Below are positions 4,528 through 32,966 of a stretch of 64,000 nt of DNA, one piece after another. A program made the position numbers and the translations under genes. Source of the DNA: Tubulanus polymorphus (taxonomy: Eukaryota; Animalia; Nemertea); contig NC_134036.1 in NCBI RefSeq assembly GCF_964204645.1, positions 9,837,859 to 9,901,858 of the forward strand. Direction: 5' to 3'. Numbering within the stretch: position 1 is the first letter of the stretch; each line of letters begins with the position of its first letter. The notes under the pieces are model-generated. The model made no database searches and was not told the DNA's origin. It saw only the letters and a list, made by a program, of their open reading frames with translations.

Positions 4528-4604
4528 TAAGAAAAGAAAACATTAAATATTTTCCATTGAATTTGTAAATAAAATGTATATTTATCTTACTTGTTGATAT
4601 ATAA

Positions 4605-5593
4605 TGTGTTAATCTAAAACTATGTGTAATATCTTCTGTTCGATGTAAGCAACTAATTATAGCCCATAGAAAACATTTATCATCTTCATTTTGTACATTT
4701 ATAATAGCATTAGTTTTAAATGGTAATTTGATATAACTCGATGCTTCAATATCTGGTTCTTTATAATATGATACATTATTTTCATCAATTGGTTTCGATT
4801 AAGTTAACTTATTATATTTTGTGTTCTAAACATGTATAGTCATAAATATTATTTCATCAAATATTAAACCAGATCCTTCAAAATATTTCTCTTCTATTTT
4901 AGTTTTTACTTCATTATAACATTTATTTAATTTTTCATCTATATGTTGTTTAGATATAATATGTTGTGAATGAGAATTTATATTATATATTGGTTTATCT
5001 TCAGATTTTATGAATTTAACTTTAGAAGATATACTAATTTTAGGGTATTCAACATCAGTTATTATTTTTATAATATTTTTCATATTTTCTAAATGTTTTT
5101 TATTTTCTTCTAATGTTTTTCTTTTATGAAATTTAAACTCGATAGCAGCTGGGCCAATATCACTTTTAAATGCTTCGGTTATCTCTATATCTTTTTTATT
5201 ATCTAATGAATTAATATAATTTCTTACATCTTCCATGTATGGTCTTTTATTGTTTAATTTATTTCTTATTCTTTTAATTGTCTTATGTTTCTTATCATTG
5301 TCATTATCAAAATAATCTTCACCTAAAATATCATTGTTCATATTTCTAATACGGCTTTTAGATTTTAAATGTTCATTATAATATCTTTTATCACTGAATG
5401 ATTGATTACATGTATCACATTTGTATGTTTCTTTTTCATTCTTTAATTCATCTAATTTAGTTTCTAATATATCATCTTTATATTCTAGTTTCAATTTATT
5501 CTCTAAATGTGTTTTAGTTTTATTGTGTCTTGATTTTTGGGATTTATCTATATTGATTTTACATGTTGAACAGTAGTACTTATTTGCTTCCAT
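4605..5593 (-). pseudogene. Polinton pPolB N-terminal fragment (subfamily A), premature stop at 4826
   Basis: Near-identical to the first ~330 aa of 16805-19426: two C2H2 fingers, FEGSGL, SSYIKLP, NEDDKCFLWAI. TAT>TAG at 4826; truncated after HSFRLT. Confidence 0.9.
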
Positions 5594-5630
5594 TTTAATA
5601 TCAAATTTTTTATTAAAATTGAACATAACA

Positions 5631-6002
5631 CTTACCTCTCAACGCGTCCCGCCGCCACGTGTGAGTCCAACCACGTGTGAGTCCCGCCTATTTATACTAC
5701 TCAACAGTGGGGAAACCCAGCTGCGTGTTGAGACTTGTAAATTATGAGGCTTGTGATTGGTTAGTGTAATAGGGAATACTCAACTGTGATTGGATAGAGT
5801 AATACTCAACTGTGATTGGATAGATTAATAGTAAAATACTCAACTGTGATTGGCTGGGAATACTCAACTGTGATTGGCTAATGTAATACTCAACTGTGAT
5901 TGGCTAATGTAGTTTTCTAGATGGGCGGTTCTAGAACCAACATGTAATACGCAATACTCAACGTGTTGAGACTTGTAAATTATGAGACTTGTGATTAGAT
6001 AG
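5631..6002 (-). promoter_or_regulatory. Pol II promoter-like cassette between the Polinton terminus and pPolB
   Basis: Five tandem aatactcaactgtgattgg units (CCAATCACA on the minus strand), a GGGCGG box at ~5923, TATAAATA on minus at ~5689-5696, two ccacgtgtgagtcc repeats and a gag|gtaagt donor at ~5635. Confidence 0.55.
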
Positions 6003-6195
6003 AGTAATAGGGGTAATAGGCTTTCATATCAAAGGTTGAGAGTTCGATAAATTTTCCAAATGTGAAATAATAATAATTTCTACTTGAATTAGGAGTGTAC
6101 GCGACTAATTCAAGTAGAAATTATTGTTATTTTCACATTTGGAAAATTTCTCGACCTCTCGACCTTTGGTATGAAAGCCTATTACCCCTATTACT
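6003..6195. repeat. Polinton terminal fold-back hairpin A (element end at 6195)
   Basis: ~90-bp inverted arms AGTAATAGGGGTAATAGGCTTTCATA(T/C)CAAAGGT(T/C)GAGAG..TTCTACTTGAATTAG around a 12-nt loop. Confidence 0.9.
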
Positions 6196-6198
6196 TAC

Positions 6199-6333
6199 CT
6201 TGTTCGTGGTGTCGGAGATCTTCTCTGTATTTCCGCCCTCAGAGGTGTACAACCAAGAAATGTAATTGCTTTGGAAGCAGTCACCCAAAGTGAATATAAA
6301 TAGCGCTGAGAACAGGTGACGGGAAATACTCAT
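6199..6333 (-). CDS. Putative first coding exon of a secreted protein, cut off by the Polinton end
   Basis: MSISRHLFSALFIFTLGDCFQ.. has a hydrophobic N-terminus and ends aag|gtaagt. The Polinton terminus starts 3 nt into the intron. Confidence 0.4.
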
Positions 6334-7289
6334 TGCGTTTGAAGAGAACTACGTGAGAATTGTTCTAACGAGTCTTGATAGGAACTGCTAACAGTGCTAG
6401 TAAGAATTTCTGAAGTCTCTCATCTCGCCATTGTTACCTATTGACTGTACATCTTCAGCCTTGAGAATTGCCGTCAATGATCGAATGATAGATTCAGTCG
6501 TTCAGTGCAGTCGTTTTAGCAAAACAGCTGTTCTATACATTTTCCAACAAGGTTATATTTTACACCTAACACGCGATAGAATTTCAATCTTGGTTAGTAT
6601 TTTGACACAGCCAAAGCGATTAAACTAAAACATGAAGCAATGAACGCTTAGGGGGAATTATATCGTTACTTAGAGAATATGAAAAAAATATACGTTTTTA
6701 CGCCGTCAAACTGTTCACTTTTTCAATTTTGTGCATTCGTCCAGTTTAAGCACACTGAGTGCACAAGGCAAACACAAATTATAATCCCTGCGAAACATCA
6801 AGGGCCTTTTACTCAATCCCTTCGGCCATTCGTGGTAATCGATGTATCAAGCTCATCCAGCCAATTCTTAAAGTGTGGAGTGACACAACAATCAGACAGT
6901 TCTTTGTCATATTTGGTTAGTTATCTCCACGTTAATTACCAACATCAAATTTACGCCGATGATCATCAGATCTATGAGGTGGTTCCACCAAAAACGTTAC
7001 AATGTTATGTCTGAACTGCCATACCTGGCAAACAGAGGTGAAACTGACTTTATAATGACCAATTACTGATTTTTCAGAAATCGCTGGAACGAATTCTGTG
7101 CAACGTTTAGAATCTAGAAATAATTTATGATTTGTTTTAGTTAATTAACTGTGTAAATGATATACTACGCAAAATCTGATCCTAAAAATGAAACATATGA
7201 GACGCAATCCTAGCAAAAACTCTCCATCGAATTTTAACATCGTTCTCACAATTGTACATCCAACTCAAAATCGAACTTTAAGCGACCGA

Positions 7290-7360
7290 TCCTCACCCGT
7301 CAAGGGATTCGAACCCACTACGCTAAAGCTGTTCTCCGAACCCCTTGACCTCTCGAGTCG
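7290..7360 (-). mobile_element. tRNA-derived SINE head or tRNA pseudogene
   Basis: Minus strand has ggtcaagg followed by a perfect B-box GGTTCGAATCC; no intact acceptor stem. Confidence 0.45.
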
Positions 7361-8187
7361 CTGGAGTCGTAACTTGTCGACCTGAATCCGGTTGTACCAA
7401 TCACAGCGCTTGTAACAAACTAAATAAGGCTTCTGTTGGTTTGTCCGTTGAATGGACCAATCAGCGAACGTTTTACCGAACAAGAAAGTATTTAGCAAAT
7501 CGATATATGACGTCATGCGCAACAGCGCCAGCAATGAAATCACGCTTCATGGGGCCAGGGGCCGGTGGAAGCGAGTTCGGGAGTGATACCGGACCCCTGG
7601 CAAGCGAGGACGAAGGGACCAGGATGGAGTTTAAGACAAATTTATGGTGCCGAAACCCGGGAACGAAGTGTTGATTGTGGTGTTAGAAAAAGTTGAATAC
7701 TAGAATTTGAAGAAATCGAGAGGAAAAAATGAACACGTGAGTTTTTCGAGTTAGTCTGTACTACATCCTCCCAGTCCCACTTTGTGAAAGTGAAGGAGTA
7801 AAAAAAAACAGAAAAAAAAATATCAGTCTCTTCTAAGAAAGGTAGTAGAGCAAGGTGAACCTCACAAAGAAAGCGGTCGCTGTTGGCTGAAGCTGAGGCG
7901 AAATAGGAAGACGTGAGTAAGCTACGGAAAAAGAGTTGCCACACTCACAATATTAATAGAATATTATCTTCTAAATTTGGAAAGAGCCTTGGATGAATTG
8001 CCAGAGTCTGTTCGTTCAATCGTTGACGATGCTGAAAGAAAAAAAGAAGAAATAGCGTTGGGGTTTTCCGACGAGGTTTTTGCTATGGCAACGGAAGCTA
8101 TGGCTCAAAAGCACTGAATAAGTATGAATCATTCGTGACTTTTTTTCTAAAAAAAAATTTAAAATATAAAGAATAAATTGATAAATG

Positions 8188-8300
8188 TTATGATTATTAC
8201 GATTATCATTATGATTATTATTATGATTATTATTTTGATTATTATTATGATTGTTGTTATCATTATTGTTATCATTATTATCATTATTACTATTGTTACA
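8188..8300. repeat. Degenerate (ATT)n microsatellite
   Basis: tgattattacgattatcattatgattattattatgattattatt... Confidence 0.85.
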
Positions 8301-8499
8301 ACTACCTACTCAATTCGCTGCACTTGCACTCTTGCACTCTAGGCACCTAGGTGCAGTGACCTGTACAGCCCCTAAGGCTCTCACTGTTACCTTCATTTAA
8401 CTTAACTCGGTAACATTTTTCTGTATTGTCATTATTCAGAGAAATGTAGTTAAATGAAAAATAAAATTATTATTATTGAAAATTTTGAATCATTTTTAA

Positions 8500-9407
8500 A
8501 CAATGTATTACTTTTTGATGCTTTATTCCTTTTTGTATCATAAATATTCAGATCTAAAATATGATTTCATTCAATGTTAGACCAGAACCCTCAAAATATC
8601 TTCCTTCAATATGACGTTTAATTCATTAAATATTTTTTTCTCTTTTATTTGTGTTTTTTAAATTATTTCGTCAAAATATGTTTGAATATTATACTCCATT
8701 TTTTCTTCTGATTTTATAAAACTTACTTTTCCAGAAATACTAATTTTTGGATATTCAACTCTGTAGCAAAGTCCATTATTTGTTCTATTATTTCGATATA
8801 TTTGCTATAAACTTATATTGTTGTGCCTTAAAAAAATCTAAATATAATGGCTGCAGGACCAATTTTACAACGTAATGTTTCTAAAATTTCTATTGTATCT
8901 TTTATTTCTAGTGAATCGATATAATTTCTTACATTTTCTATATAAGGTTTATTTGAAATAGATTTAGTTTTTGAAGCTGGTTTTTTTACTTGTTGAGGTT
9001 TATCATCAAAATATTCTGTTGCTAAAATATTTTTATTTAAATTGTGTTGGTGTTTTTGTGATTCGAGATGTCTTTCATAATTCCTTTTTGCTAGAAACTT
9101 CATTACAAACATTACATTTAATTTTATCTTTTTTTCATATTTTTTAATTGTTCTTTTCTTTCATTTGAATTTTCTGGTGTTTCAAAATCTATAACATTTT
9201 TTTATGATTTGCAGTTTTTTCGTGATGAGATTTATTAGATTTATCGATGTACTTTTTACAGTATGGACAATAATATTGATTTTTATTAACATCAATTTTT
9301 CTGTCTGGTACTCACAGTCTCCCATTTGTAAGGAAAAATTACTAGTGGTGATGAGTGATTTGTCGTACTCTCGTGCTCTGGTGTGAAAACGCTATTTTTC
9401 AATTACT
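8500..9407 (-). mobile_element. Polinton end fragment (subfamily B): terminus at 9407 plus frameshifted pPolB 5' part (ATG 9325)
   Basis: Minus strand begins AGTAATTGAAAAATAGCGTTTTCACACCAGAGCACGAGAGTACGA. The coding remnant (KRNYERHLESQKH, PYIENVRNYIDSL, IGPAAIIFRFF, FEGSGL) is colinear with 15504-16340. Confidence 0.85.
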
Positions 9408-10093
9408 GCTGCTTCTTGCCAAAAGTTGAGTGGAAAATCGGACTTTAAAGAATGCCACTTCTTTCTACAACAAGGTCCGCAGTCTTGGGGGAGCAGAGTT
9501 CTATCCGAGATCTCGATTTCCATACATAACAAGTTAGTGTTATTTTTTAGTAAATTGTCAAGGTTTTAATATGATATAAGATTTGATGAGGCGGGCCACT
9601 AAAAACATGTCCTTTTCGCCGCCGAAATTCATCCAAACTTACTTGGATTTGAAGTGGATTGGGATGTTGATTTCTGTACGGTATTTCGAGAACTTAGGTG
9701 TCTAGTTTATCATAAGCTATTGGGCCCGAGTCACACTATAACCGTTGTGGTGCGGCATACGAAAAAGTGCCGGGCAAATTCGGGAGGTTTGAGGAGTATT
9801 AGTCTGGGCGGATACGGATGGCTTGAGTGCTAACGGGTTTATAATGTTTTCAGTCAGATTTCTGAGAATTTGTTTTTCATTTGATGCGAACGAACAAAAA
9901 TAAATTGTGTGCGTAAATGAATATATGTCATGGCTTGCACGTAGCGTCAGTCTATTGATTCAATCAGTCCACATACCTCTGACACTTAATCGAATAATGA
10001 ATTCAACTCAGATGCAGTTTATCAGTTACATTGCTATAATGCCTGTAGTGAACAGGTCTAGAGCGTACCGAACAGAGTTAATTCTCGTGAATC

Positions 10094-11041
10094 ATGAATT
10101 CAACTAAGATACGAATTGGTCGAACGTATAGCAGTTACATCATTCTAATGTCGGTGGAGAACAGGTCTGGAACTTACCGTACTGTTTCGTTGGTCATTCT
10201 GCCTATCGTGTTTCTGTTTGGAGTCTTTGGAAATTCAGCTACTTTTCTAATAATGACGAGTCGCAGATTCCGCAGTTTATCTTACGCTAACTATCTTGTC
10301 ATTTTATCAGTCTGTGATTTCCTGTTCTGTATACATTTTACACTGATGCCTGTTTTACAGTTAGTTCTCTTGAATCTAAACACTAGTCTTATATTCATCA
10401 TGAATTCACTGATCAGTTGTAAGATATATGAAATATTGATGGCAGGTGCCAATTCTAGCAGTTCCTGGTTATTGGTAGCTATATCTCTAGAACGTGCGGC
10501 AGTTGTTCTCTTTCCGTTCACTTCTCGTTTGATATGCACGCCTAGATTCGCTAGATTTGCTATATTGATAATTACTACAGTGACTGTACTGATTCAACTT
10601 CCCGCTACTTTGTCGATACAATTTTCCGACCAATTTTTCGGATGTTACTATGAATTAATTGTCCAAATGAAATTTCTTACTCCACTTGGTGTCTACGCTT
10701 TTGTTTTGCCTTTATCGTTGATTCTAATATCAAATTCTATCACAATTATTCAGTTATTCAGAGGTTCAAAAATGGTTTCGTCTGATAAGAAAACTACAAA
10801 ATCGAAACGTACAACAATGATGCTTGTAACTGTTTCACTCGCATTTGCAATATTCACACTTCCAACCACTGTTGTTGTATTTTTACCAATCCTTACGGAA
10901 CAGAAAGAATTTCTATATGATATTTTGACACAATTCTTTATGAGTAACTATGTGGTAAACTTCTACATATATCTTTTACTTGGACGAGAAATTCGTGAAT
11001 ATTTCTGTATGAAAATCTGCTGTAGAAATTCAATCAAATAA
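10094..11041 (+). CDS. Single-exon rhodopsin-family (class A) GPCR, invertebrate FMRFamide-receptor-like/orphan peptide or chemosensory type
   Basis: 315 aa, seven hydrophobic segments. TM1 GVFGN, TM2 LSVCD, Cys before TM3, ISLERA (DRY equivalent), TM5 LP, TM6 FTLP, TM7 NFYIY (NPxxY equivalent), C-terminal CC. Confidence 0.93.
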   Translation: MNSTKIRIGRTYSSYIILMSVENRSGTYRTVSLVILPIVFLFGVFGNSATFLIMTSRRFRSLSYANYLVILSVCDFLFCIHFTLMPVLQLVLLNLNTSLIFIMNSLISCKIYEILMAGANSSSSWLLVAISLERAAVVLFPFTSRLICTPRFARFAILIITTVTVLIQLPATLSIQFSDQFFGCYYELIVQMKFLTPLGVYAFVLPLSLILISNSITIIQLFRGSKMVSSDKKTTKSKRTTMMLVTVSLAFAIFTLPTTVVVFLPILTEQKEFLYDILTQFFMSNYVVNFYIYLLLGREIREYFCMKICCRNSIK

Positions 11042-12293
11042 CCACTGATTTAAAATTTTATTCACATCGATTTACAGTAGGACATTTTGTTTGAGAATTG
11101 GAAATTAATCAAGGAATCACTGCCCTTGAAAATCGTGTCAATGAACCTATTAGTGTAAAATGGTTACTATGAACCGCAGCCTTTTAATCATTAAATATAC
11201 TCCCCTTCCCCCTTATCCCCACCCCACGTAGTCATACAACTTGAAACCGTATTTACTGTGGCCTGGTAAGAGTGTGATATTCAGTTAATGAAATTCGATT
11301 GTTATACAGCTGCAAATATATAATAAAACAGTTTGGAAAATCTAAATTTTCATTCTTCGAATTGTTGAATCTTTTCATTTTCGTTGATCATTTTTGTATA
11401 CAACACACAAATACAAACAGTAGTTTATCAAAGCTTTATTGTAGCTGGACGAGACATATTTCTGTGAAAATCCGCTGTAGAAATGAAGTCATGTAATCAA
11501 TCATTAATCATTGATTCATAGTTTGATTGACTTCATACAACTTAAATCCGCATATTCCGGTAACACTTCAGTAAAATACAATTACCGTTAATGTGTATAA
11601 CACTCCAGAACAAAAAGACATTGGAGCCATAGTTTGATCTTGCGCCTAGCCTTCACTTGTGGTTGCGTGTCACGACCGAATGCGTTTCATATAACCCGGT
11701 AGGGTAGGTAGTTTGTGTCCTTCACTCTGCCGATATCTTTCATATTCTATGAACCGTTACAATAACGGGTATTATATATTTCTATGGTTCATTTTGTAAC
11801 ACGCATTTCGCCATAAGCCTGCGTTTGAACACTCATGCAATGACGAGCGTGGTTGTGGTCGCGTCGTGGGGTAAGTTCGATATTTTTCTTACACTATTTC
11901 CTTGATAGTTTGAGGGTTTTCCTCCAATATCTTTCTCGTGTTTTATATTCTAGAATATTCGACGATGATATGGAAAAAGTAGATATTAAATATTCAGACG
12001 GAGTTGTAGTTGAATAGTTCTATCTGGACTGGTGAGAATGGATCAACTTGTTTGGATGCGCCTGGTGCTGAGCTGTGGACAGGACTAGCGAAATAAACTA
12101 CGACCGGCGAGATGAACTTAACGTATATACATAGTTTATTTTCAGTACAGCACTATGGCATCTGATAAACAGCGGCGATTCAAATCTACAAATACACATG
12201 TTGTAAACACACTAAATATATGTTTTTGAACTGATTTTACATAATATTCCGGTACTTCTAACAGATGATTTTGACACTTAACAGGTTAACATA

Positions 12294-12439
12294 AGTAATA
12301 GGGAATATGGGGGTTCATACCAAAGGTCGAACGGTCGAGCTCATAAAAAAATAAATTCTCGCACACTCGAATTTACTTTTTATTTTTTACTCGCCCGCCC
12401 CTTCAACCTTTGATATGAACCCCCATATTCCCTATTACT
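12294..12439. repeat. Polinton terminal fold-back hairpin B (element end at 12294)
   Basis: AGTAATAGGGAATATGGGGGTTCATACCAAAGGTCGAA ... TTCAACCTTTGATATGAACCCCCATATTCCCTATTACT. Confidence 0.9.
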
Positions 12440-12519
12440 CTTAAAATATTCATATATATGAATAACATATAAATGGATAAATTCTAAAATCAATTTAGTA
12501 ACAAATATTTGATATTAAA

Positions 12520-13170
12520 ATGGAACCAGAACAATCACAATTTATCAATATTACAAATAACACTGGTGTTATAAATATATACTACAAGCAATGTTCTAAA
12601 TGTGAATTAGATAAATTAGCTATAACAGAATTTAGTAAGCGTAAGATTAGCAAAGATGGTTTTCAATATTGCTGCAAAACTTGTATTAAACTATATACCA
12701 AGCAATATCGAGCAGATAATAGAGAACATTATAATGATTATATGACAGAATATATGAGAGGAAGATATAAAACAGATCTTAATTTTAAAATGAAACAATG
12801 TTTAAGGTCTAGATTAACACAATTATTCAACAAAGAAACGCATTCAGAAACACTATCTAATTTGTTGGGTTGTACAGATGAATTTCTCAAATCATGGATA
12901 ATATATCAATTCGACGATAAAATGAATATAGATAATTATGGTGAATACTTTCATATTGATCACGTGTTGCCGATTTTAAATTTGATATGAGCGGTGAATA
13001 CGTTAAAAAACTAATTTTGAATTGCAAAAATTTAAGACCCTTGAAAAGAAAGAAAATATAATTGAATCTAATAAACTAGATTTACAGTTATATTTAGATC
13101 AAGTGGTTAAAGCAAAGACATTTGTTGAATTATGGAATTCAACACAGAATGAAAAACACGTTGAATCTTA
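12520..13170 (+). pseudogene. Stand-alone Zn-finger + HNH/endonuclease-VII-like nuclease (large-DNA-virus type), frameshifted near 12975
   Basis: CSKC..EF..KDG..CKTC, LRSRL, LLGC, QF..M..NYGEYFHIDHVLP. Continues in shifted frames as ..KNLRPL(E)KKEN..SNKLDLQLYL.., matching 25667-25909. Confidence 0.8.
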
Positions 13171-13629
13171 AGCGTTTATAATAAGAACTCTACTCGAGTC
13201 GCTCGTGTATGTGTGTATATAGTTATCCATTATAACTGCCTATATGCAATTATACTAACATCTGTGCCACATTTTATATTCAGTTGAATGGGATGTACCT
13301 CATTTGAATATTGATCGAATGTGCTATTTCAGTTGAAAAGGATTAATCAATTACATCACAAAGGAACATCTGTTGCTTAGACAGACAGTGCCTGGGTATA
13401 TTGAGCGCAGTCGCATTACAACAGCCGAACTGAACAGACGGAATATATAGAACGTATAAGATTTTTCTCTAGAAACACAATTAGGAGTTTACAGTTATAA
13501 ATGTAAGTACTGTTTTTGTTGTTATTAAGACGCAGGGAAACGTTAAACATGTTTAAGTGCTGTAATTGATATTTGACAACTACAACTTCAAGTTAGTTTT
13601 ATTCTACATTCTAGATATTTGGTAAAAAA

Positions 13630-14349
13630 ATGTCATACAGATCAAGTACTCCATCTACTCCAAAACTGACGCAAGAAAGGGAGGAGCCAGAATGTATGGA
13701 TGTCAACACACCATCACAAGAGACTGTAATAGATATAGAAGACAAAAATATCGAAAAACTCAGGAAACAAATGGATTATTATAAACAATTAGTGTCAACT
13801 TTGGACGAAGTAATGACAACCATACAAGAATTACCAAAAATACCAACACCAAGTTTAAAAACATTATTAGGACTTAAAGAAAATAGAATCAAATTGAACG
13901 GTTATGAACTACACGAATATTTAAAATCAAAATTAATGGATCATAGAGATTTATCGAACATTAGTGAAATAGACGCGCATTTATTTTCAGAAATTAGTGG
14001 ATTACTGATAAGCGAGTATGAAAAATTGTTAACGAAACAAACAAATCATATTTGGAATTTTATAATTTTTGGGAATTCCTTGAATAAAGGGTTTGTTCTT
14101 TTCCACTCGACTCAAACTATAAATATTTCATGGGCTAATTGGGGTTAAGAAAATATACATATTAGTGTCGGGTATGAAAGAAAACTTAGATGGATTGGGA
14201 AATTATATTCATTTAAAAAATTTCAATTATTGGGTTTACCATTTGATACCGTTATTAATCATTTGACAGAAATCGAAAAAATGTTTGAAAATTACCCCGA
14301 AATCAAAGAATTCTGGTCGGAATTATATGATCCCAATGATGATTTATAA
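13630..14349 (+). pseudogene. Uncharacterised ~239-aa protein with one internal stop (14146-14148) and a 5'-UTR intron (13503-13614)
   Basis: The frame stays open after TAA: ENIHISVGYERKLRWIGKLYSFKKFQLLGLPF..FWSELYDPNDDL*. A gtaagt...ttctag intron lies just upstream of the ATG, and AATAAA occurs downstream. Confidence 0.6.
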
Positions 14350-14913
14350 CAGCAGTTGTTTTTCATACAATATAGATTTTTTGTATTAGTATTATATTTA
14401 CCCTAATTGCATTTTCTATTATTCTATGTTCAGCTATTGTTAATGTCGCAGTGACAGATGTTGTATTATACTTTATTGATTCCTGCATTCCACGCATACC
14501 TTACCGCTCGGCTCCCGAGCGGCTTGGAATGTGGAAATCGATAATGATTGTAGAATAAAATATATGTGTTTATGAAATAGTAATTCCACCAGTCGTTTCT
14601 CTAATTGAATAATACGACAACGTTTTGAGATGATGACGAAGATGATGTCGATTTAATATTTATCTTATATATCTGTCTATCAATATCATTCAAAACTACA
14701 AAATAAACGAAACAGAAATTAATACATGTACATTGACCTTCACAAAGTATCACTTATGTAATATAGAAAAAATATAATCAGGAACTTACTCGTTGCCTAT
14801 ATATGTATTACATGATGTCTTGACCAGCATGGTTAGGAGAGTGTCTACATAATGCCCAGATCTATATATTGTAAGCCTTACATAGAAATATTGTTGACCA
14901 ATGAAATGCCCAA

Positions 14914-15418
14914 GGCTGCGTTTTTCAAAGCGGTGATAAGCCCTATCCCGGTGATAAATCGCTATCCCGGTGTTAAATATTTTTATCACTGTGATAGTGT
15001 TTTTCAAACCTGTGTTAACTTTATCACCGGGATAAAATCAGCTATCCCAGTGATAAAGTTAACACACCTCCGACGTGGTGATAGCAACACTATCACCAGG
15101 ATAAATTATCAAAATGGCTGCCATTTTTTATGATGATATCTATCAAGAACGAATTTATAGACACCCACGCCGCTATCGATATCACGAAACAGTTAAATTT
15201 GTAATTAATGATTATTTAGAAAATGAAGTGAGACAGAAATATAGCTTTAGTTCGGAAAATATCACACGAATAATAGATTTAATTCGAGAAGATATAACGT
15301 ATGATACACAACGTTCCAAAGCACTTTCTGCTGAGTTACAAGTGAAGGTTGCTCTCCGATATTACGCAACGGATAGTTATTTGGATGCACTTGGTGACAC
15401 ATTTGGTCTTGTTAAATC
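14914..15418 (+). mobile_element. PIF/Harbinger 5' end with HARBI1-like transposase N-terminus (ATG 15114), truncated by a Polinton end
   Basis: Subterminal palindromic tatc(a/c)c.g.gata repeats. Protein ..KYSFS..RSKALSAELQVKVALRYYATDSYLDALGDTFGLVKS matches the Harbinger HTH region. Confidence 0.85.
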
Positions 15419-16812
15419 AGTAATTGGAAGATGTGGGTTTCATACCAGAGGGCGAGAGGGCGAGACACCACTCATCACCGCAAGTAATTTTTTTTCCTAA
15501 TAAATGGGAGAGAATGAACACCAGCCAGAAAACAATAATGTTAATAAAAATCAATATTATTGCCAATATTGTAAAAAATACATCGATACATCTCCTAAAA
15601 CACGACATGAAAAAACTGCAAATCATATAAAAAATGTAATAGATTTTGAAACTCCAGAAAATTCCAATGAAAGAAAAGAAAGATTAGAAAATATGAATGT
15701 GGATGAAATAAAATGTGAAGTTTGTAATGAATTTATAGTAAAAAGGAATTATAATAGACATCTCGAATCACAAAAACACCGCCAAAATTTGAGTAATAAT
15801 GTTTTAGGAAAAGATTATTTTGACGATAAACCTCAAAAAGTAAAAAACCAAATTCAAAAACTAAATCCATTTCAAATAAACCTTACATGGAAAATGTTAG
15901 AAATTATATTGATTCACTAGAAATAAAAGATACAATTGAAATCTTAGAAACATTACATAGTAAAATTGGTCCTGCAGCTATTATATTTAGATTTTTTAAA
16001 GGAACAACAATAGAAGATTATAGTAAATTTAATGAAATAATAGAAAAAATACTAGATTTGATAACAGATGTTGAATATCCAAAAATTAGTATCTCTGGGA
16101 AAGTAAGTTTTATAAAGTCAGAAGAATAAATGAATTATAATATTCAAACACACTCTGAAGAAATAATTTCAAAAACACATAAAAGAGAAGTTAGAAAAAA
16201 TATTTAATGAATTTAAACGTCATATTGAAGAAAGATATTTTGAGGGTTCTGGCTTAACATTGAATGAAATTATATATTTAGATTTAAATGTTTATAATAT
16301 AAAAAGAAATAAAACATCAAAAAGTAATAAAATGTTTAAAAATGATTCAAACTTTACAACAGAAAAGGATATTAAAGCATCATCTTATATTAAATTACCA
16401 TTTACAACAAAAGCAGTAATAAATGTTCAAAATGAAGATAATAAATGTTTTCTATGGTCAAATATTAGTTGCTTACACCCAACAGAAGATATTACGCATA
16501 GTTTTAGAATAACAAATTACCGGAAATATGAAACATTATATAAAATTGATCAATATCCAGTAACTATAAAAATGATTCTTAAAATAGAAAAAGTTAATAA
16601 TTTAAAAATAAATGTATTTGAATTAATGCAATTACCAAAGACAAAAGGTGAAAATATTAAAGATTATACATTGGAAGCTTTATATTTAACAGAACATTAT
16701 GATGATGAAAATGTTATAGATTTGTTATATTACAAAAAAGATGAAAATGAACATTATATGTGGTTAAAACAAATTGATTTATTCTTTAGAACAGAAAGTG
16801 ATCATCATCGTA
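15419..16812 (+). mobile_element. Polinton end fragment (subfamily B): terminus at 15419 plus broken pPolB (ATG 15504)
   Basis: Starts AGTAATTGGAAGATGTGGGTTTCATACCAGAGGGCGAGAGGGCGAG. ORFs 15504, 15887 and 16260 are consecutive frameshifted pieces (C2H2 fingers, YPKISIS, SSYIKLP, NEDNKCFLW, EHYMWLK). Confidence 0.9.
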
Positions 16813-19426
16813 ATAATAGTAGTTGATCTATATTTGTTAACAAATCCATTTTTATATCTGTAAATTTTAATCCACAATCCCATGTTAATCCTGGTGATGA
16901 ATAACAATGACAAGGATCAATATTGAAATATTTTAGGTTTACATATCTAAACCTTTCGAATATATCGGTTAATAATAATACATCTGATTTTAAATATAAA
17001 TCTACTAATTGCCCATGATTTTCTATTTTGAAATGATTCCAAATATTCAATGTTCTATTATAAACTTCATCTTTAACATATTCAATTTTTAATTCATCAT
17101 AAAATTGTTCTTTCAATAATTCAGTTATTTCAAAATCATTATGATTTTTATGGAAAGAATATGGAATCGCTCCTTTATATCTCATTAATTTAAAATCATC
17201 ATTATTTGGGTAATATTCTTTTAATATCTTTAATTCATCATCAACTAATGATTTTGATAAGTTATCTAATGAACTATTTAAAAATCTATATGAATCTATA
17301 AATCTTAGACAACCAAATTGGAATGATATATAATTCTCAGATGTTTTAGCTAACATTCTAAATTTATAAGTTGGTATTTTATCTTTTGATCTATTTGAAT
17401 TTAATATTTCTATTTCATTATTGATTTCTTCTATTTTATAACATAACTGTTTGATAAATGAATGTGCATCATATCCTGATAGATAATGAAATATAACTGG
17501 TACAAAGTTAATTTTCTTAGCTTGTAAGTTACAATTCTCATGTGCAGCGCCTCTAAACTTTCCATTCAAATGATCATGGTCTCTTACTTTTTTATCTTTA
17601 TAATTAAATATCTTTTCACAATAATAACATTTATCTGCAAACGCAAATACTTCTTTATCTTCTTCTGTCATTATAATTTCTATATTTGTATTCAATAATT
17701 TACTAAATCTTATTTCATATTCAATTAATAAGTCACAAAAATGATTAATAACATTTTCATTTCTATAATCATAATATTCACTTTCAATTAGTTCTGGATA
17801 ATCAGATTTAATATATAACCCGAAAGCAGCAGCTGATTGATGAACCTTTTTAATAGTATTTGTTTTTGGTGGTTCATCTGAAAAATCATTTTCATTAGAA
17901 TTTAATTTCTTTCTTTTATAATTTATTTCTTTTCTATCTTGATCAGTTAGTTCTTTATTTAATGATTCAAAATCTCCATATATTACAAATGGTACTTTAT
18001 TTTTGTAATCATATTTTTTGAATTCTAATATTTTATCTTTTTCATTTGGTAAAACTAATTTACAATAATCATGATTATCACATAATTGTTTATGATTTAA
18101 TAATGTACTTTCATTACTAAATTTATGTAAACATTTTCTACATAGATATATTTTATTATGGTGATCACTTTCTGATTTAAAAAATAAATCGATTTGTTTA
18201 ATCCACATATAATGATTCTCATAATATAATATATCTATAACATCGTTTGAATCATAATCTTTTGATAGATATAAAGGTTCTAATGTATAATGTTTTATAT
18301 TGTTACCTTTTGTATTTGGTAATTTGATTAAATCAAATACATTTATCTTTATATTATTATCTCTTTCTATTTTTGGGATGTTTTTAATTCTAACAGGATA
18401 CTTATCTATCTTATAATTACTTTCAAATGGTTTATAATGAGTTAATCTAAAACTATGTGTAATATCTTCTGTTGGATGTAAACAACTTATTATAGCCCAT
18501 AGAAAACATTTATCATCTTCATTTTGTATATTTATTACAGCATTAGTTTTAAATGGTAGTTTAATATAACTTGATGCTTCAATATCTGGTTCTTTATAAT
18601 ATGATAAATTATTTTCATCAATTGGTTTTGATTTAGTTAACTTATTATATTTTGTGTTATAAACATGTAAAGTTATAAATATTATCTCATCAAATATTAA
18701 ACCAGATCCTTCAAAATATTTATCTTCTATTTTAGTTTTTATTTCATTATAACATTTATTTAATTTATCATCTATATGTTGTTTAGATATAATATGTTGT
18801 GAATGAGAATTTATATTATATATTGGTTTATCTTCAGATTTTATAAACTTTACTTTAACTGATATACTAATTTTAGGATATTCAACATCTGTAATTATTT
18901 TTATAATATTTTTCATATTTTCTAAATATTTTTTATTTTCTTCTAATGTTTTACCTTTATGAAATTTAAACTCGATAGCTGCTGGACCAATATCACTTTT
19001 AAATGCTTCGGTTATCTCTATATCTTTTTTATTATCTAATGAATTAATATAATTTCTTACATCTTCAATGTATGGTCTTTTATTGTTTAATTTATTTTTT
19101 ATGCTTTTAATTGTCTTCTGTTTCTTATCGTTATCATTATCAAAATAATCTTCACCTAAAATATCATTATTCTTATTTCTAATATGACTTATAGATTTTA
19201 AATGTTCTTTATAATATCTTTTATCACTGAATGATTGATTACATGTATCACATTTGTATGTTTCTTTTTCATTCTTTAATTCATCTAATTTAGTTTCTAA
19301 TATATTATCTTTATATTCTAGTTTTAATTTATTCTCTAAATGTGTTCTAGTTTTATTGTGTCTTGCTTTTTGAGACTTATCTATACTTATCTTACATGTT
19401 GGGCAGTAGTATTTATTTGCTTCCAT
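16805..19426 (-). CDS. Polinton/Maverick protein-primed DNA polymerase B (subfamily A), C-terminally truncated before the palm
   Basis: 873 aa: 2x C2H2, NEDDKCFLW...HYMW (OTU-like Cys/His region), CRKC..H..C finger, ExoI YGDFES, inserted EndoVII CYYC..VRDHDHLNGKFRGAAHENCN, ExoII FHYLSGYD, FIDSYRFL, ExoIII YLKSDVLLL, YSSPGLTWD. Ends before RGG/DxNSLY. Confidence 0.93.
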   Translation of the reverse strand: MEANKYYCPTCKISIDKSQKARHNKTRTHLENKLKLEYKDNILETKLDELKNEKETYKCDTCNQSFSDKRYYKEHLKSISHIRNKNNDILGEDYFDNDNDKKQKTIKSIKNKLNNKRPYIEDVRNYINSLDNKKDIEITEAFKSDIGPAAIEFKFHKGKTLEENKKYLENMKNIIKIITDVEYPKISISVKVKFIKSEDKPIYNINSHSQHIISKQHIDDKLNKCYNEIKTKIEDKYFEGSGLIFDEIIFITLHVYNTKYNKLTKSKPIDENNLSYYKEPDIEASSYIKLPFKTNAVINIQNEDDKCFLWAIISCLHPTEDITHSFRLTHYKPFESNYKIDKYPVRIKNIPKIERDNNIKINVFDLIKLPNTKGNNIKHYTLEPLYLSKDYDSNDVIDILYYENHYMWIKQIDLFFKSESDHHNKIYLCRKCLHKFSNESTLLNHKQLCDNHDYCKLVLPNEKDKILEFKKYDYKNKVPFVIYGDFESLNKELTDQDRKEINYKRKKLNSNENDFSDEPPKTNTIKKVHQSAAAFGLYIKSDYPELIESEYYDYRNENVINHFCDLLIEYEIRFSKLLNTNIEIIMTEEDKEVFAFADKCYYCEKIFNYKDKKVRDHDHLNGKFRGAAHENCNLQAKKINFVPVIFHYLSGYDAHSFIKQLCYKIEEINNEIEILNSNRSKDKIPTYKFRMLAKTSENYISFQFGCLRFIDSYRFLNSSLDNLSKSLVDDELKILKEYYPNNDDFKLMRYKGAIPYSFHKNHNDFEITELLKEQFYDELKIEYVKDEVYNRTLNIWNHFKIENHGQLVDLYLKSDVLLLTDIFERFRYVNLKYFNIDPCHCYSSPGLTWDCGLKFTDIKMDLLTNIDQLLLLR

Positions 19427-19506
19427 TTTAATACTAAATTTTTTATTAAAATTGATTTTAGAAGTTCAATGATTTAAATGTTATTCATTTATATGAATAT
19501 TTTAAG

Positions 19507-19912
19507 AGTAATAGGGATAATAGGCTTTTATATCAAAGGTTGAATGGTCGAGTTTCATTAAAAACATATATTAAAAGTAATTAAAAACTATAATATATTT
19601 TCATAACCGCGTGTATTTCAGTTGAATAATAGAATAATTATTATCATTTGAATATATTTGATTATTTGAATTTGTGTATTGTAATTAAATCAATTGGTCG
19701 CGGAGCGGAGCGGTGGCGAAGCGGAGCGACCAATTGATTTAATACAATATGCATTTAAAATTATTGATATCTTAGAATAAATATTTAGTTTTGATATAAA
19801 ATGCACGCGGTTATGAAAATATATTGTAGTTTTTTAATTACTTTTAATATTTTGTTTTTTAATGAGCTCGACCTTTCGACCTTTGGTATGAAAGCCTATT
19901 ATCCCTATTACT
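19507..19912. repeat. Polinton terminal fold-back hairpin C (element end at 19912)
   Basis: ~110-bp outer inverted arms, a poorly paired middle, and an inner stem attaaatcaattggtcgc/gcgaccaattgatttaat around a GC-rich ggagcg-repeat loop. Confidence 0.9.
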
Positions 19913-20933
19913 AGTGCTCATGAGTGTCAAAGACATGAATGAGCGAGATGTTTTCCGTGAGGAATTACCACAGATTAAACTCATGTTGTGTCTATTCCAT
20001 GTGGTGCGCAGTTTCCGGAGAGAATTTTCTACGGAGAAGATGGGGCTCTCTTCGGCGCAGCATACAGTTATTCTCGAAATTCTATCGAAATTGGCATTAG
20101 CGAAAAGTGAGGAAGAATATGATCACAGTTACAATTCGTTGTATGAACTTGGAATCAGGACTGTTAATGACTATTACAATGTCAACTGGCACCCCATACG
20201 CAGCGAATGGGTGGAATTCCACAAGAATCAGTATTCGAATTATATACTTAGAAACCATCAACCAAAAGCTTAAGTCGGTAATTACCAAAGGTTTAAGTAT
20301 GGTTATGTTTTGGCGGGATTTGATGCACTGTCTGAGCACCCTTAAAATAGAACGTGACCATCATGCTGTTGCTATTGAAACCAAGGACACGGTTAGAAGC
20401 TACACATCAGATAGTGTTCTGGCAAAGTATGAAGATCTCCTCACTCCGTATGCTTTTAGATATTTGAAGAAACATATAGAATTGGCCAGTGATGAAAATA
20501 TACGGTTGCCACTGATGATGACACAGTTTACAAGTTGTATTATAAGTCTGGGCATGAAACCAAAGGAGTTACAATCAGTACCTGTTCGTGTAGTTTTTAC
20601 TATAGTATGTCACTGCCTTGTAGGCATATTTTAGCCTGTCGTTCTAACGTTAAGTTGAATGTCTTTGACGAAACTCTTTGTGCAATTCGATGGACTAAGA
20701 ACTTTTATCGACAAAACCAGAGGGTTTTCATAACCCAACGAACAACAACTGTGCAACAGGCAAATGTTGTATGTCATACTAGTACTCAACGCAGAGTGAT
20801 GTCCCAGCACGAGAAATACAGGAAAATTTCAAGTGTGATGCATAGTATTGCTGGGGTCATAACAGATATGGGAATGCGTGATTTTCATCAAGCACACAGA
20901 CTTATGAAGGAAATCGAAGGCCACCTTTTATAG
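19913..20933 (+). mobile_element. Mutator-like (MULE) transposase with SWIM finger, frameshifted, 5' part replaced by a Polinton end
   Basis: LMSVKDMNERDVF..LCLFHV (MULE second-Asp region and CxxH), ..LETINQKLKSVI (catalytic Glu region), SWIM CSCSFYYSMSLPCRH, RWT. Possible further spliced exons to ~21660. Confidence 0.85.
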
Positions 20934-22659: not shown

Positions 22660-23271
22660 TTATTTTATAAATTTATATTCATAGGGAAATTGTAGCCTCA
22701 GTAATAATTTTGAACCTTTATTATTCTTTAATTTATTCATATATTCATCGTGTAATTCAGTAGGTATAATTTGATTTTCTTCCAATGATTGTTGCATAGA
22801 TTTTTTATCTTTGTTATAAAATAAAACTAGAAATCTAATGTTTTCTCTAAAGTCTTTAACAATTGAATTATATTTTTGATTTAAAACCCATGTTGTTATC
22901 CCAAAATGTCTCCCAGAGAAAGCTAAATAACATAACTCACTTTCTCTCACTTTTGAATCATGTAAATTTGCGCAATCATCTACAATGAATAATGTATTTG
23001 ATCCTTTATAAGTATCAATTGCTATTTTAATACAATTATCTAAATTTTCTTTTACTGTTTTAGGATTTAATATAATTAACTTTTTTATCTTAACTATATC
23101 TCTATTATATGTTTTATTCATTTCATAAGTAGGACAGAATAATATTATATTATCAAAATGATTCTTATAAATAGTTTCTAACAAGTCTAATATGAAATGT
23201 GTTTTACCACAATTGGTTACTCCAGTAACTAACATATTATGCGGTTCAAATATAAATAGATCTTTATTCAT
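22660..23271 (-). CDS. Polinton packaging ATPase (A32-like, FtsK-HerA superfamily)
   Basis: Walker A GVTNCGKT, Walker B LFIVDD, arginine-finger GRH, sensor LNQKY, ..FREN. Confidence 0.92.
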   Translation of the reverse strand: MNKDLFIFEPHNMLVTGVTNCGKTHFILDLLETIYKNHFDNIILFCPTYEMNKTYNRDIVKIKKLIILNPKTVKENLDNCIKIAIDTYKGSNTLFIVDDCANLHDSKVRESELCYLAFSGRHFGITTWVLNQKYNSIVKDFRENIRFLVLFYNKDKKSMQQSLEENQIIPTELHDEYMNKLKNNKGSKLLLRLQFPYEYKFIK

Positions 23272-24355
23272 TTATTCTTTTAATTTTACTAGATAAAATC
23301 CATTCATTAAATTTATCATCGTATCATTTATATTTCACCAAAGAATACTTTTTTCCTTTAAGAGTTTTTGTTTTCAATACTTTTTCTATTTTGTATTCTA
23401 TTTCATCTGGATTTGGTACAAGTGATAATTCTTGTTCATAGAAATAACCTAATATTTCTTCATCTTTTAGATCTTCTAATTTATAAACAAAAGGTTTAGT
23501 TAATATTATCTTTTTAATCTTGAATATTTCTTCTGTAAAATTTGGGGTATAACCTTTATAAAAGGTTTTTCTATATTTAGATATTCTAACGTGTTGTCCT
23601 ATTTTAAATTTAGGTTCTCCGAAATCATGTGTAACAAATGCTCCATATAAATTATTCCAAACTATTTCCGAATTATCTTCTTTTCTAGCTTGTATAGGTT
23701 TCATATTTATAGAACTATGTTTAGAATTATTATAACCTTTCACTAAATCATCTAACACATCGATATATTTATATGTTTCATTAGTAGTAAAATATTTCCA
23801 CATTCTAGTTTTCAATGTTTTATTAAGTCTTTCTATAATAGATGCTTTTTTATCTGAGTGAGTTGAAAAATATTTTACATCGTTATCAGATAATAGTTTT
23901 TTGAAATGTTTGTTATAAAATTCCTTACCTTCATCAAATTGTATCTTATCTGGAATAGCTTCTTTAAATATAGATTTAAAAGCATTTGTCACTTCTATAC
24001 CAGTTTTATTTTTGATTGGAATTGACCATGCGTATCTACTGAATATGTCTATAACATTTAATATCCAGAAATATCCTTTGTTGTATTCTTCTAAGTTCTT
24101 CATGTCAATTAAATCTGCTTGCCATTGTTGATCGATATATGAAACCATAACTTTTCTTGTTAAATAAGTTTTATCCATTTTCTTGTGGATTTGATATGTT
24201 GGTTGATTTTGTAACCATGATTTTAATTCACTATATTTTATATCACCATTTTCTTTATCAGATTTAATTTTATTCCATAATTCTGAAACGCTAGAATATG
24301 ATACTTCACTTTCTGGGTTATAATATAAATCTCTTAAATATTGTTCTTTTTTCAT
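23264..24355 (-). CDS. Polinton retroviral-like (rve) integrase with C-terminal chromodomain; premature stop at 23324-23326
   Basis: WQADL (D), IDIFSRYAW, QFDEGKEF (D), IIERLNKTLK (E), GYTPNFTEE. Chromodomain YKIEKVL..LVKYK*YDDKFNEWI has TGA where Gly is expected. Confidence 0.93.
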
Positions 24356-24369
24356 CTTATTTTAATCCA

Positions 24370-25666: not shown

Positions 25667-25909
25667 TCATTTCGGATCCTTGATATCAAATTCCTCAACG
25701 TATTGTTCATTATTTGGATTATTGTTCCATTGATCAATAAATGTCTTTGCCTTTGTTAACTGTTCTAAATATAACTGTAAATCTAGTTTATTAGATTTGA
25801 TTTGATTTTCTTTCTTTTCTAAAGGCCTTAAATTTTTCCAACCCCAAATAAATTTTTTATTGTATTCATCATTCATGTTAAATTTAGATATTGGTAACAC
25901 GTGATCAAT
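25667..25909 (-). pseudogene. C-terminal half of the stand-alone HNH/EndoVII-like gene (5' part lost)
   Basis: IDHVLPISKF...WKNLRPLEKKENQIKSNKLDLQLYL, homologous to 12955-13170. Confidence 0.85.
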
Positions 25910-26154
25910 CAGTCAGGAACACTTTCCAAAAACGGCTTATTCTGCCAATTTCGGCGTTTTCCGCCAATAACGGCAGAATAAGCCGTTTTTGGATCACTCA
26001 GTTTTAAACTGCTACTGCCAATTTAGCCGAAATCGGCGTTTTCTGCCATTTTTGGCTTGTTCTTAAAAAACGCCATTTCCGCCGTTTTCGGCTGTAACAG
26101 TTTTTAAAACTACATCGCCAGAAACGGCGTTTTTGCGTAGATAGTTTTACAGTG
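25910..26154. mobile_element. One end of a CMC/EnSpm-type DNA transposon (CACTG terminus) with subterminal repeats
   Basis: Ends ...ttttacagtg (reverse complement CACTGTAAAA). Many cggcgttt/gccaattt repeats and a 22-bp inverted repeat at 25925-25993. Confidence 0.55.
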
Positions 26155-30199: not shown

Positions 30200-30342
30200 T
30201 GAAATATAAGTCCCACAATCACGAAGCCGAAAAACTTGAAATAGTTTAATTTTAAAAATGTATTAAAAATAGGATTTTAATATATCTTTAACGTAACTCT
30301 ATTTCAATTTTTTCGGCTTCGTGATTGTGAGCTTATATTTCA
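30200..30342. repeat. ~45-bp inverted repeat just downstream of the PHD gene
   Basis: tgaaatataagtcccacaatcacgaagccgaaaaacttgaaatag ... ctatttcaattttttcggcttcgtgattgtgagcttatatttca. Confidence 0.85.
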
Positions 30343-30470: not shown

Positions 30471-32966
30471 ATGATCAAAACGTTTATGTGTAAATATTTG
30501 GTACGATTAGAAGACAGTTTTGATGGTGTAATTAGGGTGATAAACACATTCGCTTATGAGTTTGATTATGGCTTGTTATGTGGTGAACAAAATAAACTGA
30601 TTTTATATAAATATGTACATACCTCTTCTAGTTTGTCGAGATTACGAAAAATATTTCGCCACTGTGTGCAGTTGGGTACTCCAGCAGGGGTCCAGGCTTT
30701 GGCTTTTTTGTTGACTTCTTCTAAGAGGGCATCACCTCCCTGATAGTGCCCGTGGTTGTTTAGCCTTGAGTGCGAAAAGCAAGTACCGATGATGGACTTG
30801 ATTTCATGTGGCATTGTTTCGAGAACTAGTGCATTGTTGAACATAATCCAACTGTACTTTGGGTTATTACGAGCGTAGAACATGGGTAGAAACCGTTCAT
30901 ATCCCGCAGTCATAAATTTAGCATTCCCTTTTCTGACTCCTCTTCGAAATAGCATGATTCCGTGTAAAAATGTGTATGTCATTTGCAACATGTAATTATA
31001 ATTTACGTTTTCCATGTTTTCCTGCCACTGCCAAAACATGTCTGCAGTGGGAACAGTGCCATTTTCAACGCACTCGGAGACAAAAGGTAAAAGCAGTTCA
31101 TCCCTCAGTGCAAATTAAGTAATTTCTAGCACACTAAACAGCTTGTGGTGGTCCGATCCCTTTTTGATGAATTCTTTTGCTTTTGCCGATACGAAACCAA
31201 GTTTTGTCACCACCTCCGACATCATTACGTCCCAATTTAATTTGATGAAAGCCTTGCATGCTGCCATTTCTAAATGCAAGAGTCCAGGTAACAAGAGAAT
31301 CCAGTCGAACTCATGCGTCGGTACAATATCATACATGGCTGAACACGGATGTTCCGTGAAATTATTTTCACCGTAAAACGAATTCTTGCATCTATCGCAA
31401 TGCAATACATTCTTAATTAAATGACTTACGATCCAAAATATGGCACCGTCCACTTCTAGGATCAGCCACGAGCGCACGTTCCCGCCATATCGTCGAATCC
31501 CCGCTCGAAAGCCGATGTTACGTATCAGCTCCGCTATACTTTCAAAGCTGTTTGGATTCAACATTTCGGGTTCGCCGGTCACAACAGTTACAGAACGCTC
31601 AATCAGTGGAATGCTAGTCGTAAACTCGTCATTTGGCGAGACTGCGAAATCGAGTTCTTCGACTAACTTTTTGTCTATCGTTAAACGAATGAGTTCGCCA
31701 CCGCAATTCGTGCAGCTTCTCACAGTTGCATCATTTTCCGCTCCACATCCAGAACAACGTCTTGTACTTTCGCTCACGCGTACTGCCTCGGTTAATCGTT
31801 CCACATTGTCCAGTCCTGCTTTAATTTCCGAAAACAACTTTTCAAGTCGAGCAGTAATTACACAATCCTGCGAATATCTGAACTCGTCGCCTGTTTCGTC
31901 AGCGCGATTTTTTATTCGCTCTTTGACGTCATCTTTGACTTCCGAGAAGAGCCAATTTCCAGGTTTCAAGTCTTCCCGCTATTGGATGTCGCATTTCTCA
32001 TCCATTACAATGTATATACTGGACGTTATGACACTAACCGGCGTTTTATTCCCAGCTTTTACAGCATACATTTTTCCGACAACTTGTTCGTTGTCGAACA
32101 CAAATTTAACGAGTCCACGGGGTACCGGTGGCTCGGTATCAGCCTGGCGTTTTATCCATGTATTCATATACGTATATGAGCCACCGCCGGATGCCGAGCG
32201 CAATTGCATTAATGTTTTACTCTGAGACAAGCTAAATGCCACGAGATTTTCGCGAAAAGACGCGGGAAGCACCATCCGAGAGTTAATCTGCGCATATATC
32301 CCCTCGATCATGCGTGTCAAGGTTAAACATTGTTTCGTTGTTGGTTCCCCAGTAAAACCACATAATCCTGAGCATAAACGTAGTCCGGTGGCCTTGCTTC
32401 AAGCCATTTTCGCGGGTTATAATCTCTGAGTTTGTTGATATCTGAACACAATTTCTCTTTGTAGAGTTTTGTACAGTTTTGTACAGTCCTTGGCAATATC
32501 TGTCTCTAGTAATTTAACTGTTTCGGAAACCGGATTAGAGAAAACTTCATCGGTTTGAGGGGAACCTTTTCCTCCGACACTTCGAACTCTCTTCACGCCA
32601 ACACCTTTGTCGAAATACTTAACGCATGTCTCGCATATGAACGAACTTTTTCCGCGAAAATTTTCACTGTCTCTGATCGAATCCGTCACACTTTTTTTCA
32701 ACTTTTTTCCGTCCAATTTTATCAACGCAGCTTCTTCGTTACTGTCGTGGAGAGTGCAGCCACAATATCCGTGCTTACGCTTCGGCATTTTGAAATGAGT
32801 CTAAATATGGCTCTATTGATTTTGAGTGGTTTAACATCATGGGCCACCAATTCATTCAATCACTATCCATCACATGTCCAATTTGCTAGGAGGCATCAAA
32901 GATGTTAATCACCTTCAATTAACAGTCTACTAATATACCAATCAACCCTTCCATGCTTTATTAGAC

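Follow-up and report, generated by a model that had tools for sequence, protein, structure and literature searches.

RESULTS

Three Polinton ends in the window are fold-back hairpins

The 64,000-nucleotide (nt) stretch of the nemertean Tubulanus polymorphus analyzed here (the window; NC_134036.1, positions 9,837,859 to 9,901,858) is animal DNA, with a seven-transmembrane (7TM) receptor gene, a WSC domain, and a satellite, in which Polinton fragments are scattered. Five one-ended fragments of 0.9 to 3.1 kb each lie at 4600-19912 (Table 1), and the terminal sequence is AGTAAT in all of them. No 6-bp target-site duplication (TSD) is common to any two of the five end flanks and no complete element is present in the window; all five ends thus belong to one-ended fragments. 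Ends A, B, and C are palindromes with exactly the positions and lengths given by the initial annotation, and D and E are simple ends of a sister family. The terminal pattern of the arms matched eight times in the window, against 0.01 matches expected (100 shuffles). Six matches are the arms of A, B, and C, as recognized earlier; the other two, at 9407 (-) and 15419 (+), are the simple ends, which had been overlooked.

Hairpin A folds with -83.3 kcal/mol (z, -25) and hairpin B with -52.1 kcal/mol (z, -15), values as low as these being reached by none of 200 shuffles in either case, and hairpin C folds with -106.5 kcal/mol versus about -25 kcal/mol for 30 mononucleotide shuffles. The simple ends reach only about -8 to -12 kcal/mol over 150 nt and form no fold-back. 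Counting arm positions from the first base of each arm, outer and inner arms do not differ at positions 1 to 26 in A and B. The identity of arms claimed for every copy holds to this extent; hairpin C has one further mismatch at position 23, which 95% of reads lack and which is therefore private to that copy. At positions 27 and 35 the outer arm carries C and the inner arm T in all three hairpins, so that the pair of mismatches of one polarity reported before is borne out. AG stands directly before the inner arm in all three. Three other palindromes (25925-25993, 30200-30342, and 62795-63190) are unrelated to Polinton ends and served as folding controls only.

Table 1. Polinton-related features of the window
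Feature	Position	Strand	Remarks
Hairpin end A	6003..6195	-	193 bp; outer arm 6195-6150 at host junction; inner arm from 6003; CACTC box in loop
Hairpin end B	12294..12439	+	146 bp; outer arm from 12294; inner arm from 12439; CACTC box in loop
Hairpin end C	19507..19912	-	406 bp; outer arm 19912-19867 at host junction; inner arm from 19507; CGCTC repeats in loop
polB 5′ fragment of end A, protein-primed (predicted)	4600..5622	-	Start codon 5593; 94% identity to 18433-19455
Inner segment of terminal inverted repeat (TIR), B	12440..12528	+	Extends to start codon; inverted match to 19418-19506, 83% over 12396-12528
Inner TIR segment, C	19418..19506	-	Between hairpin C and polB start codon (19426)
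Broken gene, presumably zinc-finger/HNH-like; other element end	12520..13170	+	78% to 25695-25909; no Pfam match
Truncated polB	16808..19426	-	873 amino acids (aa); zinc fingers, predicted terminal-protein domain, vOTU, exonuclease with EndoVII insert; palm cut off
Sister-family end D	8476..9407	-	Same terminal motif; C at 27/35; CACTC at position 51; no hairpin; polB 5′ fragment
Sister-family end E	15419..16826	+	Simple end; polB 5′ fragment
rve integrase	23324..24361	-	PF00665, E 1.3e-9
A32-type packaging ATPase	22660..23271	-	PF04665, E 3.3e-12; adjoins integrase

Hairpins A and C lie directly upstream of polB fragments, and hairpin B lies upstream of the gene that we take, from its motifs, to be zinc-finger/HNH-like. 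B and C have in common an inverted segment running from the inner arm to the start codon, which suggests a TIR composed of the hairpin plus the promoter region; in a window that holds no complete element, the evidence for this TIR is the inverted segment together with a read depth over it of about twice that of polB. At end A, a different module of ∼370 bp (5629-6002) with 26-bp tandem repeats separates the hairpin from polB and contains what are presumably ATTGG (CCAAT) boxes, CACGTG boxes, and a splice-donor-like site.

The hairpins belong to the ends of an abundant family

Copy number and junctions were read from sample X4, a raw Illumina run with the same species label from another study, of which ∼12% was read; the Logan contigs X1 to X3 were too fragmented to span a hairpin. 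Depth along end C was 969 over the polB 5′ region, 1,988 over the shared inner TIR, 1,338 in the hairpin interior, 3,048 on the outer arm, and 24 in the flank. The copies thus number in the hundreds, which for a genome of 0.5 to 2 Gb would mean ends on the order of a thousand. Loose read ends pile up at the outer terminus of C (19912/19913; 1,736 plus 543 reads, agreement 0.33 to 0.35) and of B (12294; 1,683 reads, agreement 0.34), and depth at B drops by 96% outside the outer arm versus 6% past the inner arm. At the inner-arm start of C, no loose ends appeared among the rows listed, i.e., fewer than 296 reads versus 2,279 at the outer end. The outer arm therefore joins varied, host-like DNA, in line with the variable outer flank noted at first, and the inner arm continues into the element. 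Applied to these reads, the solo-insertion test proposed in the initial annotation identified the hairpins as part of the Polinton termini. At 19313, 296 reads leave polB 113 nt into the gene, and their continuation bears a likeness, by eye, to the HNH-like gene near 25755; the TIR may therefore reach into the coding region in some copies and give rise to a zinc-finger-HNH fusion.

The arms co-vary and the mismatch polarity is fixed

At end B, variant shares in X4 are mirrored between the arms at the eight positions listed on both of them (39/38, 73/63, 73/61, 28/28, 69/47, 80/64, 36/42, and 33/38%; r = 0.94). Among the rows listed (at least ∼18%), variants confined to one arm are T at position 28 of the inner arm (38%), T at position 27 of the outer arm (24%), a second variant at position 25 (outer, 22%), and positions 17/18 (inner, 20 to 22%). 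Down to 18%, these rows contain no variant at position 35 on either arm and none at position 27 on the inner arm, so flipped ends must make up less than ∼18%, not 50%; loose ends place them below 12%, both figures being upper bounds among the rows listed. Small opposite-strand joints at end B (8 to 20 reads) are not readable as flips. Polarity is hence nonrandom over many copies, the outcome on which the initial annotation had staked its reading. Rolling-hairpin replication of the kind used by adeno-associated virus and other parvoviruses yields flip and flop in equal share, and the suggestion of parvovirus-style flip/flop ends was accordingly given up.

The one-arm variants suggest a subfamily in which the first motif unit is altered on both arms and the C/T mismatch has shifted to position 28, the linkage being unseen. 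A mini-hairpin carries the outer-C/inner-T pair at position 43 within single molecules (7 reads). According to the read joints, hairpins range from ∼90 to 406 bp and keep the first 37 to 47 nt of both arms. The loops of A, B, and C and most of the mini-loops shown contain a CACTC-type box, which the simple ends carry at position 51. Since the simple ends D and E carry C27 and C35, the T's of the inner arm appear to be derived, and the hairpin probably arose by inverted duplication of a simple end. The end architecture is real and family-wide.

Wobble pairs lie on the strand that ends at the terminus

Transitions between the arms leave a G-T pair on one strand of the folded end. In well-aligned columns, a first count gave 11 versus 0 for G-T on the strand whose 3′ end is the terminus. 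With private sites dropped and positions 27 and 35 counted once, the numbers are 6 versus 0 (P = 0.03), and with two read-derived sites added, all eight wobbles fall on the 3′-end strand (P = 0.008). This strand folds 2.6 to 10 kcal/mol better than the opposite one. About 40 bp of it pair without interruption, and in A and B the two bases preceding the inner arm extend past the 3′ end.

The polymerase is predicted to be protein-primed

The predicted model of the truncated window polB (mean pLDDT, 74.6) contains, at about 136-256, a beta-beta-alpha-beta-beta-alpha-beta domain whose last strand is preceded by Gly-Ser241-Gly. C-terminal to this predicted terminal-protein (TP) domain come a vOTU domain (Cys307/His405) and then exonuclease (Exo) motifs, with an EndoVII insert in the exonuclease region. 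Viral fold matches are adintovirus, densovirus-labeled, and adenovirus polBs (best E, 5e-23), and the best PDB matches, though weak, are to Y-family little-finger domains, in keeping with what is described for Polinton terminal proteins. A TP-vOTU-Exo layout including such a domain is described for Polinton terminal proteins in the accessible text of a preprint (10.1101/2024.03.18.585575). Model and motifs agree with that layout, and the hairpin-family element is thus predicted to be protein-primed by a TP-vOTU-exonuclease polB. Full-length homologs measure 1,319 to 1,365 aa (67 to 73% identity), and the EndoVII insert is present in many distant homologs. The VSR fold nicks DNA at T-G mismatches. 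A VSR domain occurs in some mollusc and marine nematode Polinton polymerases, according to the available part of PMC10748475.

Other genes and host context

The tie of the integrase and the ATPase to the hairpin family is indirect, via the paralog of the HNH-like gene of B at 25695-25909. In tblastn searches with the open reading frames (ORFs) of 11 of 49 related loci, only polB, ATPase, and integrase matched the window, which holds fragments only, and no capsid or protease gene was among the matches; no HUH nickase was found among the 26 window ORFs scanned. At 16805-16826 the polB fragments of ends E and C abut tail to tail. A repeat forms the host flank of A (6191-6733); a second, uninterrupted copy of it at 33-555 shows the empty site, and the far side is absent from the window. 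End C is inserted in a transposase remnant (19913-20933) with a SWIM finger, presumably MULE-like. End E interrupts an ORF at 15105-15418 without a Pfam match, which we take to be Harbinger-like, and 19-bp inverted and tandem repeats lie upstream at 14931-15066. An intronless rhodopsin-family G-protein-coupled receptor gene (10091-11041; PF00001, E 2.5e-18) stands between two Polinton ends. Farther along, broken ORFs at 30566-32398 with weak DUF6589 and zinc-ribbon matches probably represent a DNA transposon, and the satellite at 40044-60608 (∼20 kb) has an 89-bp unit with higher periods of 178 and 267 bp.

Relation to known elements and distant relatives

Animal Polintons/Mavericks (adintoviruses) share with this family a TP-vOTU-exonuclease polB with an EndoVII/HNH insert, an rve integrase, an A32 ATPase, and TIRs that begin with AG, but here the TIR opens with an imperfect palindrome of 90 to 400 bp. 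The end motifs of vertebrate Mavericks, (AGT)2, (AG)3, or (AC)3A, are replaced by AGTAAT. Our literature search (open-licence PMC and bioRxiv) found no report of terminal palindromes in animal Polintons. In the accessible text, "hairpin" is unmentioned in PMC8097293, both "hairpin" and "palindrom" are unmentioned in PMC8502044 and PMC10748475, and terminal palindromes are absent, or the terms unrelated, in PMC11296320 and PMC12220804. Two apparent hits were discarded: the hairpins of 10.1101/2022.05.25.493380 are, in the available portion, protein beta-hairpins, and the stem-loop of PMC12220804 is, likewise in its available portion, a histone RNA element.

The claim that this architecture is undescribed was nevertheless overstated. 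In the available part of a preprint (10.64898/2026.07.28.741278), TIR palindromes are reported for four virophage subtypes and one polinton-like virus (PLV) subtype, mostly with replication genes other than protein-primed polB (pPolB), and hairpin priming is proposed. The Halocafeteria virophages and PLV subtype 4 described there resemble the present family in having a palindrome inside the TIR at the host junction, an rve integrase, and a proposed hairpin function. They are protist elements, however, with palindromes mostly accompanying non-pPolB genes, whereas A and C lie directly upstream of pPolB; the section on them reports neither polarized mismatches nor arm co-evolution. Some TIRs of casposons, polB elements too, contain internal palindromes (PMC4046053), but casposons are prokaryotic and use a Cas1 integrase, and no polarity is described in the accessible text. 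The hairpin end is thus a variant Polinton terminus with partial precedent in protists, the end structure having so far been reported, in the sources as available, only in protist relatives.

Two further systems offer analogies. At the telomeres of Streptomyces linear replicons (Tpg/Tap), a terminal protein sits on the 5′ ends, the 3′ strand is folded, and the fold-back templates repair of missing terminal bases, as set out in the available text of PMC5449611; these replicons are bacterial, with an internal origin, many short palindromes, and a Tap primase, and no homology is implied. At the left terminus of the parvovirus minute virus of mice (MVM), a conserved mismatch makes the arms of the terminal palindrome unequal and leaves one arm active (PMC1185569, in its accessible part), but MVM is a single-stranded DNA virus with the HUH nickase NS1, and at the present ends flip/flop was not seen and no nickase of that type was found among the 26 window ORFs scanned.

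An alignment search yielded 10 viral loci and 39 loci of metagenome-assembled genomes (MAGs), mostly at 24 to 45% identity. None of the 49 has the terminal motif; two have a long-range inverted pair, neither with a local palindrome at the pair among the matches listed. The terminal pattern had no match in viral_contigs or in metagenome_contigs, and locus searches with single proteins detected no relative in either viral or metagenome contigs. The Polinton-type polB relatives in the 39 loci of prokaryotic MAGs (L011-L049) probably reflect host or eukaryote contamination.

DISCUSSION

A fold-back telomere as the favored reading

Starting from the observed architecture, its fixed polarity, the co-variation of the arms, and the G-T pairs on the strand that has its 3′ end at the terminus, we favor, at roughly even chances, a fold-back telomere that serves as template for filling in the 3′ end and re-forms the duplex origin locally, its inner arm being disabled; this function is one that we infer. 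A TP-primed polB would copy the genome from end to end and so keep the polarity fixed. The displaced single strand carrying the 3′ end would fold locally into ∼40 bp of continuous duplex, leaving the 3′ end recessed relative to the two extra bases that precede the inner arm. With this local duplex serving as its origin, the displaced strand would no longer depend on long-range pairing between TIRs. Trimmed or damaged 3′ ends, e.g., ones that lost a terminal dinucleotide at integration, would be filled in on the same duplex as template, and inner-arm variants would thereby be copied outward. Trimming of a terminal dinucleotide by the integrase is known from retroviruses. In the inner copy, the conserved CCA and CGA motifs would be abolished by the C-to-T changes at the least cost in pairing, leaving the arms unable to act as a mini-element or as a second integrase or origin site. 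As first proposed, selection may plausibly maintain the inner arm as a disabled origin or integrase site. The stricter version, a self-repairing telomere in which the disabled inverted copy of the end pairs through 3′-strand G-T wobbles, restores the bases removed at integration, and rebuilds the origin independently of the opposite end, we advance more tentatively, as a possibility rather than an expectation.

The fixed polarity is consistent with a protein-primed polymerase that copies faithfully from end to end, and it rules out symmetric resolution of the hairpin. Several observations weigh against the fold-back telomere. Beyond position 46, the AT-rich stems are paired too, which fill-in from the 3′ end cannot account for, and our literature search found no report of integrase end-trimming in Polintons. 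Genomic reads show no start/end pile-up at a terminus (ends B and C), and a free linear genome, its 3′ end, and its protein are unobserved. Two of the 11 transition sites first counted are private to copy C (95% and 99% of reads differ); the strands of the control palindromes also differ, by 1 to 4 kcal/mol; and the wobble bias amounts to 5 C/T to 1 A/G, which deamination of one strand explains equally well, so that the wobbles are suggestive only. The AG rule of the initial annotation, although it holds in three of three hairpins, comes down to two independent contexts, because the entire inner flank is common to B and C. The inner arm of C retains an intact third motif unit, and the statement that all three units are broken in every inner arm was dropped. 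The T at position 27 in 24% of outer-arm reads is ascribed to the subfamily by inference only. PDB fold matches of the polymerase are Y-family little-finger domains, weak (best E, 0.0035; none ≤0.001) and without an aligned range. Finally, a hairpin is not required by all such Polintons, since the sister family lacks one despite sharing the end motif.

Alternative readings

It is unlikely, though worth weighing, that the 3′ fold-back itself primes synthesis and that EndoVII/HNH nucleases resolve the hairpin-closed duplex asymmetrically, in the manner of the MVM left end, the mismatches leaving one arm cleavable. The folded 3′ end does lie on a template that continues into the element, and candidate nucleases are at hand in the EndoVII insert of polB and the HNH-like gene of the other end. 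A mismatch-defined origin active in one arm is known for MVM (PMC1185569), and hairpin priming has been proposed for protist virophages (10.64898/2026.07.28.741278), each in the text accessible to us. Such priming is, however, unnecessary given a predicted intact terminal protein plus vOTU, no hairpin was seen with the EndoVII insert in many distant homologs, and only resolution of the asymmetric kind would be compatible with the polarity.

Also improbable, to a like degree, is a functionless relic, in which a single old inverted duplication of the terminus is homogenized by intramolecular repair, selection keeps the outer C's, and the inner T's are deamination scars. Nearly all mismatches are indeed C-to-T, positions 35 and 43 are CpG, and the sister family manages without a hairpin. 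Positions 27/28, in contrast, are not CpG, and positions 25-26 are homogenized immediately beside the lasting mismatch there; the mismatch recurs at new positions with its polarity unchanged, stems of unrelated sequence and length co-vary in different subfamilies, and both arm cores are kept even in very short variants.

Less credence still is due to a duplex regulatory or cruciform element of the TIR promoter, under whose control polB would stand at one end and the HNH-like gene at the opposite end. The inner arm lies 80 to 90 bp from the start codon in B and C, and AGGTCGA repeats are present that bear what we take to be a resemblance to nuclear-receptor half sites; yet in A the different module intervenes between hairpin and gene, and the strand-specific wobble points to a single-stranded state. 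An independent miniature inverted-repeat transposable element (MITE) inserted at Polinton ends, formally suggested by two inverted terminus copies, is largely refuted and very hard to credit, since ∼94% of inner-arm depth runs on into element sequence, loose ends number fewer than 296 at the inner-arm start against 2,279 at the outer end, the hairpin is covered at ∼1.4 times polymerase depth and so is no free MITE, and no hairpin is flanked by a TSD.

Implications for Polinton biology

Models supply most of what is known of how Polintons exit the chromosome, replicate the displaced strand, and recover their ends. The family described here yields a strand- and position-specific prediction, namely, which strand folds, which bases separate the working from the disabled end, and what the untrimmed end is, and its hairpin-less sister family in the same genome provides a natural control. 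Terminal palindromes coexist here with a terminal-protein polymerase, against the association proposed from protists. If the stricter version, the self-repairing telomere, is true, it would represent convergence on the end logic of Streptomyces and parvoviruses inside a protein-primed integrating virus, and the genome would record an unprocessed Polinton terminus.

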